From: a virus
Lineage: Duplodnaviria; Caudoviricetes
Length of the DNA stretch: 64,000 nucleotides
Direction: 5' to 3' (one strand)
Virus record (IMG/VR): IMGVR_UViG_3300014590_000001
Location: 192,658 to 256,657 of that record
The notes under the pieces were generated by a model, which was not told the DNA's origin, searched no databases, and was given only the letters and a program-made list of their open reading frames with translations. Below are positions 7,186 to 21,623 of this stretch, in pieces; the first letter of the stretch is position 1; every line of letters begins with the position of its first letter. Made by a program: the position numbers and the translations under genes.

Positions 7186-7195
7186 ATCTGTAAAT
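7186..7195 (+). promoter_or_regulatory. ATCTGTAAAT class 1 promoter motif upstream of primase
   Basis: Motif copy ~47 nt before the ATG at 7242. Confidence 0.6.
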
Positions 7196-12933: not shown

Positions 12934-14049
12934 ATGAGTTGGTTAACTGGAGGAAAGCAGCGCAACACATACAAGCGACATAAAACTTATGAACATGATC
13001 GCGTTCAGAAAAGATTGGACAGTGTAATTGAAATTGTCCAATCGAAAGTTGAACAGGCGTTGTCGGTAGACAGCACCAAAGTGATCATTTTCAAGAAAGC
13101 GAAATTCGGTTTGGTATGTAGCTGCAACCGCGTAGAAAATAGTTTCGATGATGTGCTTGAAGGTGGCATGAAAAGTGTCATGAGCGAAAGTGACGGCGAA
13201 GCGCGTGGAAACGGCATTGAAGTTAAGCCCGTTGGAAACACAATGTTTGGCGGCAAAAATCGCGGAGCAATTGCACTGGATGATATGATTCCTGCGAATG
13301 CTCACGCGGTTTTAGATGCAGCCGATATGTTGAGTGATGGCGAAGATGAAGATCAACGTTGGGATGGCGGTAACGTAGTTAACTGCGGCATTTGCTATCG
13401 ACAAGGTTTTCAGCCTGGGTTCCAATCTACGGGTTATATCTACAACGTAATGACGCATCACCACGTTCAAAAACTTTCAGGTTACACTCTGGATCAATCT
13501 ACCGCGCCAACAACGTTTCGTCTTGAGCGTAAAACTGGTTACGTGGAATTCGATACACTGATTCCAAAGTATTTCAAGAAAGCGCAGTTTAGTATTCGCG
13601 TGAACGATGTTGTTCTTTCTCCTTCGAAAAAACTTCTCGCTGTTATCAATGGAACTGAAACTGCGTTGAGTATGGATTTGCTGAAGAAGTATAAAGGCCA
13701 GCACATTCGCATTCGCGTGAAAGATATTGAAGCGTTCACACACGCCACTTTGATTTTTGATTTGGGTGTGGATGATATCAATGGAAACATCAGCGAAGAA
13801 GCAAACATTTTAAACTACGATCAAGAATTGACAGTCGGTAATATTACGGTAGTGCTTCCTGCGCGTAGTGGTATGATCGAACCTGAAGATATTCTCGTTC
13901 TGCCGTTTAAACGTTATGTTTTAAAAGTGACTGAAGCACCAAAGAAACGTACTGCGAAAAATCAGTCGTGGGAATGGGTTGTCACAACGCGTCCGGTACA
14001 GCGAAAGGAATTGCAGTACAACATTAATAAAGGATATGACTTGAGGTAA
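12934..14049 (+). CDS. probable virion structural (neck/head-completion-like) protein
   Basis: CSC...CGICY..GF motif, beta-rich C-terminus (DIL......VL.V.E...), class 2 promoter and GAGG SD. Confidence 0.55.
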   Translation: MSWLTGGKQRNTYKRHKTYEHDRVQKRLDSVIEIVQSKVEQALSVDSTKVIIFKKAKFGLVCSCNRVENSFDDVLEGGMKSVMSESDGEARGNGIEVKPVGNTMFGGKNRGAIALDDMIPANAHAVLDAADMLSDGEDEDQRWDGGNVVNCGICYRQGFQPGFQSTGYIYNVMTHHHVQKLSGYTLDQSTAPTTFRLERKTGYVEFDTLIPKYFKKAQFSIRVNDVVLSPSKKLLAVINGTETALSMDLLKKYKGQHIRIRVKDIEAFTHATLIFDLGVDDINGNISEEANILNYDQELTVGNITVVLPARSGMIEPEDILVLPFKRYVLKVTEAPKKRTAKNQSWEWVVTTRPVQRKELQYNINKGYDLR

Positions 14050-14591: not shown

Positions 14592-15009
14592 GTAGAATAG
14601 GGTCACGGGGGCGTTTTAAGGCACTTCTACACAACTTCGTGATCCGCTCTTTTTAAGAGTCAGACATTCTTCTCATAAATCAATGACTTACAGAATCAAG
14701 CAAAAATTACGCACGAGTTTCGTTTGACGAGCTTTCGCCTTCTTTTGAGTAGATTGCTGTTTCTACGCTGTCTAGGGTAGGGTGTACTGAGTAGAGGTAT
14801 AGTGTGTAGTTATACCTACAGCGGAGCGCAATGCCGGGAGCCACCAGGCCCATGCCAGCCCGGCCCAGCCGTACAGCGCAGAGGATATAGGTTCTATATT
14901 CTGTTATCCTCTAAATGTTTTTAAAATAAAAGATACAAAAAGAAAAGGCGCGGATCGGGATCGAGGTTCGGGAAAATTCTGTAAAGATCCATTGGTTTCT
15001 CGTTAAATC
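14592..15009. other. long non-coding region, candidate replication origin (nested hairpins, IHF box, GC patch, AT-rich tract)
   Basis: Largest gap in the window. Inverted repeats cgctgt/acagcg, aggtata/tatacct and agaggata/tatcctct, plus an A/T tract at ~14912-14946. Confidence 0.4.
14678..14690 (+). promoter_or_regulatory. IHF consensus site
   Basis: AATCAATGACTTA is an exact match to WATCAANNNNTTR. Confidence 0.5.
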
Positions 15010-16671
15010 ATGTTTAGGTATGTTATGGATACTTTCATCATTAAGAATCCTGCATATCAGGAACTTTCCACGGTCGAATGGGTTCGCAAGAATGTTATCT
15101 TTGCGTGTCCTTATGACGGGCCAGCAGAAAAAGAGTGGGAATTCAGGGATCAGATTTCTACTTTCTTCTGGCATATTCTCCACTGCACACTTTATAACAG
15201 CAAGTTCAAAAACGTTAAGCGTCTTCCTGCTATTCCTTTCCCGTTTGTTTTAGGTTCCGCTAAACTGCCTTTAGTTTTCGGATCTGGAAGTGAGACAACG
15301 GCGAAAGCGAATTATTCAGGGAAATCGTCAACGGCAATTACTCGCTCTTTGAATTGGCTTAGGGAAAATGTTCTGGATGTGTCAGGTTATAAGTTTGGCG
15401 CAGCAGGATCGGAGTGTAGAACTTTCCGCATCAAACGTGAAGTGTTTGAGGGTATGTATCCGCACTGTCCAAAAACTCCGGATGAAATTCTCCGGAAGAC
15501 AAGATATTGCAGTCCTAAGTTTTTACGCAGCACTCCTATTGGGAAAACGCTGACTGATATTCTCGCAAAGAAATCGGTTAACGCTTTAGGTTTGCCATCA
15601 CACGATTTTGAAGCGCTGCATCGCAGTACGGATCGTGAGGCACGAAAACTTTATAAGGAAGTTTTATCTCGTCAGGAACCGATCACGTTAACGCTTCTTC
15701 CAATTGCGGAAGAGTTGAGTCGCCTGAGCAATTTCTTTAGTATGCAAGGACGCTCGCGTTATCGTCTTGTGTTTTCCAACACAATGAATATTTTGTCCGG
15801 AAAGTTTACGTGTCACAATCTGGATGAAATGAAAATTTCTTATCTGCCTACATATCGTGTGAGTCCAGTTGGCGGTCGTTTGTATGAATGCGGTGGCGGT
15901 TTTCAAAACATGCCGCGCAGCATTAAAGAGCGGTGCCACATTAAAGGCTACAACCACGATATGAAAAGCAGCCAACTAAACATTTTAAAACTTGAGTTCG
16001 AGCGCAACAATATTCGTTGTAACTCAATTCGAGATTTTAAAAGCGTTGCAGATTTTGGCGCACCTTACGGTTTGTCGAAAGAGGATACGAAAGTTTGTTT
16101 CTATGCGACGGTGTTTAGTATTGGTCAAGCGCTTCACTCAAAGTCTTGTTGGCATAGCGAACCTCTACGCGTGATTGCAAAATCAAAACGCGCTGAGTGT
16201 ATCCGTCGTGCGGCGAAACAATTGAAGAAAAAATATAAGGATCTTTCAATGCTACAACCTGTGATCGATAAGGCTCGCAAGTTGATGGTCAAAGAAACTT
16301 TCCGTATTCGTGATATTTGGAACAAAGAAAATGAATCTTTAACTCTGGCGCTTGAAGCATTGTGTGATACGTATATTTCTAAGGCTCGCAAGGTCAAAGA
16401 AAATTCCGTGTTAACTAATGCAGTCGGTGTGCGATTCTCTTGGCGTTCCGATTCAATTGACTACAAAATTCGCAAACAAATTCTGAGTCACATGATCACT
16501 GGAATCGAAACAAAACTTTTGTTCGATATGATTTTGTCAAACAATGTTAAAGTCTTTTCCTTTGAACACGATGGCGCGTTAATCAGTCGAGCGAAAGTTT
16601 CGTCTGAGGGTATCGAATGGGTTCGTAAACCTTTCGATGAAACTTCTTACCAATATTTCAAAAATCTGTAA
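15010..16671 (+). CDS. divergent PolA/T7-RNAP-fold nucleotidyltransferase-like protein
   Basis: GGRLY...FQNMP, motif A-like NHDMKSSQLNIL, motif B-like TKVCFYATVF and motif C-like SFEHDGAL. No exonuclease motifs seen. Confidence 0.55.
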   Translation: MFRYVMDTFIIKNPAYQELSTVEWVRKNVIFACPYDGPAEKEWEFRDQISTFFWHILHCTLYNSKFKNVKRLPAIPFPFVLGSAKLPLVFGSGSETTAKANYSGKSSTAITRSLNWLRENVLDVSGYKFGAAGSECRTFRIKREVFEGMYPHCPKTPDEILRKTRYCSPKFLRSTPIGKTLTDILAKKSVNALGLPSHDFEALHRSTDREARKLYKEVLSRQEPITLTLLPIAEELSRLSNFFSMQGRSRYRLVFSNTMNILSGKFTCHNLDEMKISYLPTYRVSPVGGRLYECGGGFQNMPRSIKERCHIKGYNHDMKSSQLNILKLEFERNNIRCNSIRDFKSVADFGAPYGLSKEDTKVCFYATVFSIGQALHSKSCWHSEPLRVIAKSKRAECIRRAAKQLKKKYKDLSMLQPVIDKARKLMVKETFRIRDIWNKENESLTLALEALCDTYISKARKVKENSVLTNAVGVRFSWRSDSIDYKIRKQILSHMITGIETKLLFDMILSNNVKVFSFEHDGALISRAKVSSEGIEWVRKPFDETSYQYFKNL

Positions 16672-16672
16672 A
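16662..16672 (+). promoter_or_regulatory. AAATCTGTAAA class 1 promoter motif
   Basis: Exact copy overlapping the stop codon of the upstream gene. Confidence 0.65.
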
Positions 16673-16707
16673 TAAGTTTCAGATACCGCAGTGTTGGAGA
16701 TTATATC

Positions 16708-17880
16708 GTGCCTACTAAAAAAGCACGGCAAAAACCGTTAACAGAAGAGGAAATGCGTAAAGAGGTGCTATTAAAGTCTCCGCTTCCTGCGTGGCAGAAA
16801 GAAGAGATTCGCGCTGGTCGCATTCCTGAAGCGTCGGAAACAAAGGCTGTAAAGAAAGTTAAGAAAGTAAAATCGAAACCTGAAGAAAAAGAGGTTGCTG
16901 ATAAAAAGGTGAAACCCAAACCGAAGGTGAAGATTAAAAAAGAGAGGACGTTGAAAATTTATCAACTGGCTGCGCTATACGAGTATTATCATCGTAACAC
17001 CGTGCTGGAAGATTATTCGCGCTGTCCTCCAATAACGATTGCAGAGGCTACGGAACTGGTCAAAGATATTAAGTCTTCTGATCTGGAATCGTGGCCTGAA
17101 GTTGATCGTTTATTTAAAAATCATCCAACACCTTCACGCGAAAATAAGAACGTTCTCGTGCAACATCAATACGATGACATTCGAGAGTTTCGACACGCTC
17201 TTATCGAGAAGGAAATTTATGTCGGTATCAGTATTCCGTTGTTCATCGAACATTTGAAAATCGATCTGGATGATCCGATCATGCTAAGTTTTTCTTACGT
17301 GTGGTCTGGTTACATTAAGACGATGATCGAACGTAAAAAGAAGCGCGGCGATATTCTTTCGCGTCACGCATCTACCGTTAAGGACGGAGTGTATTGTTTC
17401 GAGATTGAGTGTAACGCAGAGCAAGCAAAAATCTTAGACCGCTATTGTGAAGTTGCGCATGGCACTTTGATCGCTGCCCGTGATTATCTCAAGACTTTAG
17501 GCAAACGCGCTCCGTACAAGCTGGACAAAATCAGCAATAAACTTGCTACTCAAATTCGCGCAGAGCATGGCTTCGAAGATGTTCCGCGCAGTTTGGTTGT
17601 CAGCGCCCTTAACGGCTACGCACATAAAGTAAAATTCGATCCTAGCAAAGAGTTTAAAAAAGAACTCTCTCGGTTCTACCTGAAAGATTCTTTTAAACTG
17701 CAAGAAGATTCTCTGACTGTCGGTAAAGCCAAAGATATTGCTATTCGAAAAGTTGTGAGCGGTGAACCACTGACGTTTAAAGTTGTTGGCGTGAGTTTCC
17801 AGCGCGTTTCTCCTTTGGTGTATACGGTCGCGATTCAGTATTGCGATATCGAATACCAGCGGAGTAAATTTTCTAAATAG
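16708..17880 (+). CDS. hypothetical protein; C-terminal half resembles TnpB N-terminal HTH/REC/WED region, no RuvC
   Basis: YCFEIECNAEQAKILDR...FEDVPRSLVVSAL...LTVGKAKDIAIRK...VGVSFQRVSPLVYTVAIQY parallels the IS605 OrfB pattern, by eye. Confidence 0.5.
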   Translation: MPTKKARQKPLTEEEMRKEVLLKSPLPAWQKEEIRAGRIPEASETKAVKKVKKVKSKPEEKEVADKKVKPKPKVKIKKERTLKIYQLAALYEYYHRNTVLEDYSRCPPITIAEATELVKDIKSSDLESWPEVDRLFKNHPTPSRENKNVLVQHQYDDIREFRHALIEKEIYVGISIPLFIEHLKIDLDDPIMLSFSYVWSGYIKTMIERKKKRGDILSRHASTVKDGVYCFEIECNAEQAKILDRYCEVAHGTLIAARDYLKTLGKRAPYKLDKISNKLATQIRAEHGFEDVPRSLVVSALNGYAHKVKFDPSKEFKKELSRFYLKDSFKLQEDSLTVGKAKDIAIRKVVSGEPLTFKVVGVSFQRVSPLVYTVAIQYCDIEYQRSKFSK

Positions 17881-17883
17881 TTT

Positions 17884-17908
17884 AAGCCTCTTCGGAGGCT
17901 TTTCTTTT
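17884..17908 (+). terminator. intrinsic terminator
   Basis: AAGCCTC-ttcg-GAGGCTT followed by a T-rich tail. Confidence 0.85.
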
Positions 17909-17932
17909 ATCTTATTTTCGGGAAAGATAATT

Positions 17933-18397
17933 ATGAGTAGTAACGAACGTTTAGCGGAATTGATCCGCGAGCGTCATGCTCTTATGCGCGAAACTTTCTG
18001 GAACACTTTCAATGCCTTCGAAAAATCATTCGCTATCACTAACGATCCTTTCTTCCCTGATGCTGAGTGGCTGCTTACTAAGCGCAGTATGCACTTACGC
18101 ATGGGCAAGGGAACCGGTCATAGTACGTTTGCAAAAGAACTGGCAGAGAAACACAACGCCTTTCTTTTAACAATGGATCACGAATCAATTACTGGTGAAT
18201 ATTCTTTCACTCATAATCGGTTGCGTGAGTTATACCATAAAGTTTTTGAATCTGGCGACAAGCCTACCCTGTTCGTTATTGACGATGCTTATCAGTTTGG
18301 TGGACGGATTGAATCCCTCGCACAAAGACTCATTAAGTTCCGCGACGTTTTAGGTGAGGCTTACATTCAGCAGGTTCGCTTTGTGCTTCTAAACTAA
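17933..18397 (+). CDS. small degenerate P-loop NTPase-like protein
   Basis: MGKGTGHSTF (Walker A-like, K>H) and LFVIDDA (Walker B-like). Confidence 0.55.
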   Translation: MSSNERLAELIRERHALMRETFWNTFNAFEKSFAITNDPFFPDAEWLLTKRSMHLRMGKGTGHSTFAKELAEKHNAFLLTMDHESITGEYSFTHNRLRELYHKVFESGDKPTLFVIDDAYQFGGRIESLAQRLIKFRDVLGEAYIQQVRFVLLN

Positions 18398-21290: not shown

Positions 21291-21292
21291 TC

Positions 21293-21569
21293 TCGCACCG
21301 CAAGAAAAAAGTTTCGTTGTGGTACGGCGAGCTTGCATATGTGCGTTTACACGGAGCGCACAACATGGCAGTAAGACTCGCCAAGTGCCTATCACGCTAA
21401 GGCACTTTAATCTGCGTGGGGGTTTGTTCGGAGGTTCCGACAGCTTACGGGCAAACTCCAAAGCGACTAACAAAAAGTTTCTTTGGAGTTTGTCCAAAAC
21501 TAAAATGATGAAATAAGATTTAACTTTACCCTGGAGGGAACCGAAGACGACGCGGTTCCCTTTTTTTTT
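21293..21569 (+). ncRNA. candidate structured non-coding RNA
   Basis: Intergenic, with at least five stems, a CTAATTT motif just upstream and a terminator at the 3' end. Confidence 0.5.
21535..21569 (+). terminator. intrinsic terminator
   Basis: AGGGAACCG...CGGTTCCCT followed by a T run. Confidence 0.85.
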
Positions 21570-21574
21570 GATCC

Positions 21575-21585
21575 AAATCTGTAAA
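21575..21585 (+). promoter_or_regulatory. AAATCTGTAAA class 1 promoter motif
   Basis: Exact copy upstream of the dnaX-like gene. Confidence 0.7.
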
Positions 21586-21623
21586 TTCCATGTATACAAT
21601 CAATCCGGTATGGAACTGAAAGA

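Follow-up and report, generated by a model that had tools for sequence, protein, structure and literature searches.

A jumbo-phage protein with a predicted TnpB-type WED and REC lobe and no nuclease, and its possible role beside the replication genes

What would a phage do with the recognition half of a TnpB protein once the nuclease half is gone? The question is raised by g390, a gene for a 390-residue protein in a 64-kb stretch of phage DNA (the window), which forms the end of a complete jumbo-phage record of 256,657 bp that carries direct terminal repeats (IMG/VR record IMGVR_UViG_3300014590_000001, positions 192,658 to 256,657). The window shares ~80% DNA identity with the Dickeya phages JA11, JA13, JA29 and JA33 (Salmondvirus), which are PaBG/Lu11-like jumbo phages that use the host RNA polymerase and phage sigma factors (PMC7412058). 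We asked what fold g390 has, whether the gene is functional, and which of several possible roles fits its surroundings.

An AlphaFold2 model of g390 was built on 19 sequences, g390 itself and 18 homologs. As shown in Table 1, the protein divides into a tail, a middle domain and a C-terminal module. Predicted local distance difference test (pLDDT) values were below 50 at residues 40-78 of the tail and ~90 across residues 225-380. In the C-terminal module, strand beta1 of WED (residues 228-234) is followed by inserted REC helices (237-267, 277-287 and 294-310), the other WED strands (within 322-378) and a terminal helix (380-388). Residues that are invariant in all 19 family sequences include T281, R284 and V292-P293-R294, which lie on REC helix 2 and where REC helix 3 begins. 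When the model was compared with the PDB by Foldseek, ISDra2 TnpB ranked on top (8exa_A, 8ex9_A and 8h1j_A; E 1.5e-4 to 4.9e-4, probability 1.0), and Cas12f, Cas12k, Cas12n and Fanzor2 came next. The best 30 matches among representative solved chains all belonged to one superfamily, and the nearest were TnpB rather than the larger Cas12 proteins. An independent model from the ESM Atlas agreed with a TnpB-type fold, and in the BFVD and Atlas structure libraries the only matches outside the protein's own family were TnpB-type 'transposases'.

In ISDra2 TnpB, WED is an OB (oligonucleotide/oligosaccharide-binding) fold made of residues 1-12 and 117-176, REC spans residues 13-116, and RuvC starts at residue 185 (PMC10097598). 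The order of beta1, helical insertion and remaining barrel is common to the g390 module and TnpB residues 3-180 over their full length; a WED OB-barrel with a REC bundle between beta1 and beta2 is the arrangement by which the TnpB/Cas12 superfamily is recognized. The C-terminus of g390 corresponds to TnpB residue ~180, short of the RuvC start. Because of the fold match and the ISDra2 domain borders (PMC10097598), we read the module as the entire WED+REC lobe, ending at the RuvC boundary, and we are highly confident that the predicted fold is of the TnpB type. An initial annotation of this stretch, made by eye, had proposed a nuclease-less TnpB derivative fused to a novel N-terminal domain, to be abandoned if no structural match to the TnpB WED/REC region emerged. 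The Foldseek result (E 1.5e-4) provides that match, and residues 80-222 do look novel, with no detectable relatives, structural ones included.

At the level of sequence, no significant match to g390 was obtained in Pfam, PHROGs, NCBIfam or PDB sequence searches. The TnpB N-terminal profile PF12323 (HTH_OrfB_IS605) reached 12 bits where the cut-off is 21 (E 0.04-0.15), and did so in 3 of the 19 family members, with residues 229-249 lying in register on profile positions 6-26. Alignment of the C-terminal profile by hhalign was not significant against InsQ alone or against a 79-sequence profile of InsQ-clade N-lobes (E 0.31), the latter again in register (7-36 on 7-36). A homolog search started from InsQ, meant to widen the range of TnpB sequences, yielded E. 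coli copies of ~98% identity and nothing else. Free-end pairwise alignment with TnpB gave z ~0, and end-to-end global alignment of residues 227-380 with seven TnpB N-lobes gave z 3.2-4.3 above shuffles, compared with 1.1 for residues 80-222 as control. The open reading frame of the initial annotation (390 codons, + strand) and all four strings that it quoted were found, the strings in the order given. Its TnpB motifs were right in order and register but fall below statistical thresholds, and the string YCFEIECNAEQ, which it placed near position 17389, starts at residue 229, position 17392. The kinship between g390 and TnpB, as modelled, rests on structure and not on sequence statistics.

Judged by the features that define a TnpB, g390 is not one: it lacks the nuclease, TNB, a guide RNA and the context of an insertion sequence (IS). 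Neither PF01385 (OrfB_IS605/RuvC region) nor the TNB zinc ribbon PF07282 was found in g390 or in a six-frame search of the complete phage genome, and the same search found no Y1 TnpA (PF01797), in agreement with the earlier remark that tnpA and IS features are missing. The gene is present in a single copy and holds a fixed position across phage genera. No omega-RNA lies at or after its 3' end: the stop codon is separated from the next ATG (17933) by 52 nt, and the terminator fills this spacer, which leaves no room for such an RNA, as had been stated. No Rfam family matched between positions 14000 and 22000.

Two large protein searches recovered only 18 relatives of g390 (22-93% identity), which come from metagenomes or from jumbo phages of Dickeya and Erwinia, and the gene was found in 22 phage records. 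It occupies the same genomic position in Salmondvirus, Yoloswag and metagenomic contigs, so that the conservation in related phages that the initial annotation had asked about is present. The ratio of nonsynonymous to synonymous substitution (dN/dS), assessed against two related metagenomic phages and JA13, was 0.10-0.20 in each of the three parts of the protein; for the WED/REC part, comparison with the closest relative gave 0.10. The protein start, MP.KKAR, is kept in 15 homologs. g390 is a working gene under purifying selection.

As the initial annotation had indicated, g390 has a promoter-like motif of its own, AAATCTGTAAAT, and a terminator-like hairpin with a T-run. The core of this motif is enriched in intergenic DNA over the whole phage genome. 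Copies of AAATCTGTAAAT stand 30-50 nt upstream of the genes for primase, g390, the clamp loader, two DNA polymerases, the single-stranded DNA-binding protein (SSB) and a sigma-like factor; the upstream neighbor of g390, g553, carries a copy with one mismatch, which is exact in the related locus L092 and in JA13. From sequence, we infer that AAATCTGTAAAT is a promoter, and we regard it as a candidate promoter class of the replication genes. Since g390 and the replication genes have this motif in common, they are likely produced together. A second motif, CTCTGCAAATAAGTGTCCAAAATACCG (~27 nt), was seen in 11 well-conserved copies, all on the minus strand and outside the window (window-relative -57888 to -10403), with TAnAAT-like elements ~45-50 nt downstream; this motif probably marks a further promoter class.

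g553 and g390 are adjacent at every locus where the upstream flank is visible (JA13, Yoloswag, L086, L091 and L092), down to 24-26% identity, and both genes diverge far faster than those that flank them. Three invariant g553 motifs, D317..SSQLNI, K361.CFY..G372 and SFEHD521G, resemble motifs A, B and C of family-A polymerases in order and rough spacing, and an Atlas feature search returned DNA_pol_A as the only named family, with weak scores of 0.76 and 0.83. Searches of Pfam, NCBIfam and PDB profiles found nothing significant among polymerase families. A family-A relationship was likewise tried by hhalign against T7 RNA polymerase, T7 DNA polymerase, E. coli PolA and the phage's own PolA, and nothing significant was obtained. 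We refer to g553 as a putative polymerase. In a predicted complex of g553 with g390 residues 80-390 the score was 0.02, which is under the mark and counts neither way on binding. g553 is the more widespread of the two genes (43 phage records, compared with 22). Its homologs seem to be under-annotated, with a 285-residue coding sequence in JA13 where tblastn aligns a homolog of 542 residues, 405 residues in JA33 and a 351-residue coding sequence in AD1.

Proteins of 165-175 residues take the slot after g553 in Yersinia phage fHe-Yen9-02 and in Alexandravirus-type phages. These were considered as diverged pieces of g390 and rejected, as hmmsearch and hhalign gave no significant relation to either g390 domain. 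The gap upstream of g553 is kept in all related phages; its sequence is kept only among the closest ones, except for an IHF (integration host factor)-consensus site and an AAAATT block, and it holds GAGTAGA-like repeats. The conserved block in this gap, ATCAATSACTTAC, was evaluated as a g390 operator and discarded: it is a single-copy IHF-consensus site whose near-matches are no commoner than in shuffled sequence.

Table 1. Positions of g390, its parts and neighboring features (window coordinates unless a locus is named)
Feature	Position	Strand	Description
g390 coding sequence	16708..17880	+	390 aa; GTG start, TAG stop
g390 Shine-Dalgarno GGAG	16696..16699	+	Read from sequence; 8 nt before the GTG start
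g390 tail, residues 1-79	16708..16944	+	Conserved MP.KKAR start followed by two short predicted helices and a disordered, variable stretch rich in Lys and Pro (KPKPK)
g390 middle domain, residues 80-222	16945..17373	+	Compact, mostly helical, confidently modelled
g390 predicted TnpB/Cas12-type REC lobe (WED+REC), residues 225-389	17380..17874	+	Without RuvC, without TNB
Intrinsic-terminator-like hairpin and T-run	17884..17910	+	7-bp stem and 4-nt loop (17884-17901), then T-run; directly 3' of the g390 stop
Promoter-like motif AAATCTGTAAAT of g390	16662..16673	+	~35 nt upstream of the start codon; overlaps the g553 stop codon
Other AAATCTGTAAAT copy	21575-21586		
Motif core ATCTGTAA	starts at 7186, 24929, 35766, 52081, 60316	+	
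Motif core ATCTGTAA	starts at 1251, 2343	-	
g553	15010..16671	+	553 aa, PHROG 30690 (no assigned function); directly upstream of g390
Non-coding gap upstream of g553	14592-15009		420-500 nt, kept in all related phages
IHF-consensus site	14679-14691		Single copy, in the gap upstream of g553
Structured-RNA candidate	21291-21570	+	Flanked by g192 and the clamp-loader gene; intrinsic terminator at its end; 3.4 kb downstream of g390; without Rfam family
Proteins of 165-175 aa in the slot after g553	L088:5087-5584, L090:5079-5603, L089:5060-5584		Alexandravirus-type phages and Yersinia phage fHe-Yen9-02

We propose for g390 the role of a nuclease-free DNA-recognition factor in the phage replication regulon, probably exercised together with g553, and we put the probability of this statement as a whole, with its inferred function, at about one half. 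Most likely, a TnpB gene lost its nuclease lobe and became fused to a phage domain; the product would consist of a flexible Lys/Pro-rich tail, the novel helical domain and a complete TnpB-type WED+REC lobe. In TnpB, the duplex of the transposon-adjacent motif (TAM) is held in the WED/REC cleft, and the omega-RNA scaffold needs WED and RuvC (PMC10097598). Since the TAM is gripped by WED and REC and the scaffold by WED and RuvC, the retained half appears best suited to protein-only reading of a short DNA motif or junction. g390 would be made alongside the replication machinery and would take part, probably with g553, in starting or controlling phage DNA synthesis or transcription, while the novel domain and the tail may serve as interaction or tethering parts.

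Several observations weigh against this proposal. The similarity of g390 to TnpB in sequence lies under every curated threshold, so that the case for its descent from TnpB is built on fold and topology. The polymerase nature of g553 was not confirmed by Pfam, NCBIfam, PDB profile or hhalign searches. Alexandra, AD1 and fHe-Yen9-02 have an unrelated protein after g553, which is therefore not strictly dependent on g390. Finally, no repeated candidate operator was found, and the sole conserved block of the upstream gap is one IHF-like site.

Among the alternatives, the one that fares best, though we consider it improbable, has g390 form a polymerase or primase with g553, in which it would be the subunit that binds the template. 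The analogy is with PolA-SSB (CcPol-MP of SCCmec), outlined by Rice 2022 (10.1101/2022.12.02.518924; Bebel 2020 as cited there) as a minimal family-A polymerase made primer-independent by an OB-fold single-stranded-DNA-binding protein encoded just downstream. In PolA-SSB and TV-Pol, as in g553-g390, the gene for an OB-fold nucleic-acid-binding protein directly follows one whose product has motifs like those of family-A polymerases, in a mobile genome, WED being itself an OB fold (PMC10097598). The long-kept adjacency of the two genes, their shared rapid divergence, the A/B/C order of D317, K361 and D521 in g553 and the DNA_pol_A returns would all fit such a pair. Moreover, TV-Pol neighborhoods contain IS605-type genes (Iyer 2008, PMC2579912), and this suggests how a TnpB could have come to lie next to g553. 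However, g553 has no significant polymerase match in any of the searches above, and Alexandravirus-type phages retain it with an unrelated protein downstream. Helicase or recombinase neighbors of the PolA-SSB type are missing from the g553-g390 operon, which is followed by a marginal AAA protein of 154 residues, proteins of unassigned function and a peptidase, and the phage already has a DnaG-like primase. MP also differs from g390 in being a small, plain OB-fold SSB without a REC bundle or an extra domain, and g553 is only a putative polymerase whose complex with g390 is hypothetical. The 154-residue protein (17933-18397, + strand), whose counterpart in JA13 shares 80% identity, exceeds the 21.2-bit cut-off of the AAA ATPase family PF00004 marginally, with a score of 22.7 bits (E 1.5e-4).

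A bolder proposal, which we hold to be rather unlikely, is that g390 and g553 make up a new kind of two-component system for nucleic-acid synthesis. As its specificity subunit, g390 would read a DNA motif or hold a guide or template RNA and direct the minimal, polymerase-like g553 to a defined start site.

It is also unlikely that g390 binds RNA by its WED surface and is an RNA-guided or RNA-binding regulator whose partner RNA is encoded elsewhere in the phage. The TnpB WED does contribute to omega-RNA scaffold binding (PMC10097598), and nuclease-dead TnpB relatives, the TldR proteins, are described in 10.1101/2023.11.30.569447 as RNA-guided repressors. The phage also has a strongly conserved, covarying structured-RNA candidate upstream of the clamp-loader gene, with 86% column identity over four phages; of the 80 pairs that RNAalifold predicts, 4 show compensatory changes. 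With a covariance model built on its core, this RNA was found in Yoloswag (L001:10025-10156), which has g390, and in fHe-Yen9-02 (L100:2555-2761), where g390 is not detectable. As the RNA does not track g390, it was rejected as a g390 partner. Further arguments against an RNA-binding role are the loss of RuvC, the domain that completes the scaffold-binding surface and helps to form the heteroduplex channel, the terminator within the 52 nt after g390, the lack of Rfam matches around the locus and the poor conservation of the gap upstream of g553 between close genera. The initial annotation had suggested an RNA acting in trans from 14592-15009 or 21293-21569; given the poor conservation of the former and the presence of the latter in a phage without g390, neither was established. 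An RNA partner for g390 is not supported.

Could the lobe have a source other than TnpB? OB folds and helical bundles are common building blocks, and with no significant sequence similarity the module might be an old or convergent combination of the two, or represent the kind of protein from which the REC lobe of TnpB itself came. We judge this quite unlikely, as the specific split topology matches TnpB residues 3-180 over the full length, TnpB is nearest within the single superfamily that supplied the best 30 solved-chain matches, and both the sub-threshold PF12323 match and the global alignment (z 3.2-4.3) are collinear with TnpB. In addition, the g390 family is taxonomically narrow among phages, whereas TnpB is ubiquitous.

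Phages often copy host parts as inhibitors, and g390 might in principle be a counter-defence decoy that competes for the TAM sites, protospacer-adjacent motif (PAM) sites or guide RNAs of host RNA-guided nucleases. We find this very unlikely: its promoter motif is shared with replication genes, it is not grouped with early genes of unassigned function, and its synteny is conserved inside a block of replication and morphogenesis genes. A weak Pfam match to Gabija anti-defense 1 (Gad1; E 0.067), which might have favored a decoy, was set aside as a low-complexity artefact of the Lys-rich tail (residues 49-104; 13 bits against a cut-off of 27). That g390 is a functionless, decaying IS200/IS605 remnant, a thought prompted by Atlas clusters of PF12323-only TnpB fragments of ~196 residues, is scarcely credible in view of its dN/dS of 0.10-0.20, its fixed position across phage genera, and its in-frame fusion with a novel domain that is itself conserved. 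The gene also has a ribosome site, a promoter-like motif and a terminator of its own, and TnpA is absent from the genome.

We next compared g390, read as a nuclease-free recognition factor, with other members of the superfamily. The PF12323 signature of IS200/IS605 TnpB (ISDra2, PDB 8H1J/8EXA; E. coli InsQ) is weakly recognisable in g390 and in register, at an identity of 12-14%. Unlike these proteins, g390 has ~220 extra N-terminal residues (tail and novel domain), lacks RuvC, TNB, the C-terminal domain, an omega-RNA locus, TnpA and IS ends, and is not mobile. Further parallels are TldR and other exapted, inactivated TnpBs (sigma-, FlgL- and DppD-associated; Cas12k and Cas12m), which like g390 are TnpB-derived, have lost cleavage, are immobilised and have a fixed partner gene. 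In a large survey, exapted TnpBs had a dead or partly truncated RuvC, and those with the heaviest truncation lacked RuvC-III only (PMC10691335). TldR-type proteins are defined by a retained, dead RuvC scaffold and RNA guidance, whereas g390 lacks the whole nuclease (NUC) lobe, with no RuvC of any kind, no adjacent RNA and no evident guide RNA.

Proteins of ~196-231 residues in the ESM Atlas that consist of PF12323 only, the 'TnpB fragments', have the same lobe without the nuclease half; normalised to the length of the shorter protein, template modelling scores were 0.56-0.65. Their annotations describe them as pieces of mobile TnpBs and, unlike g390, they show no sign of an additional fused domain or of synteny kept among phages. 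In the literature searched, coverage of which is incomplete, no description of a conserved RuvC-less REC-lobe protein was found, and every exapted TnpB or Cas12 protein there retains the RuvC scaffold and an RNA guide. g390 differs in this respect and is best called a new variant among TnpB derivatives.

The example of g390 suggests that the recognition lobe can be retained alone under selection and fused to other domains. If g390 binds DNA without RNA, the TAM/PAM-reading cleft would be a stand-alone, very small natural DNA-binding module. If it works with g553, transposon-derived parts would be tied to replication initiation in the poorly studied PaBG/Lu11-like jumbo phages, a group that includes biocontrol phages of Dickeya and Erwinia. 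Were the two-component reading true, these phages would have a previously unknown priming or transcribing route built from transposon parts. The analysis also offers a testable annotation for g390 and g553, which are listed as 'hypothetical proteins' in over 20 phage genomes on deposit.
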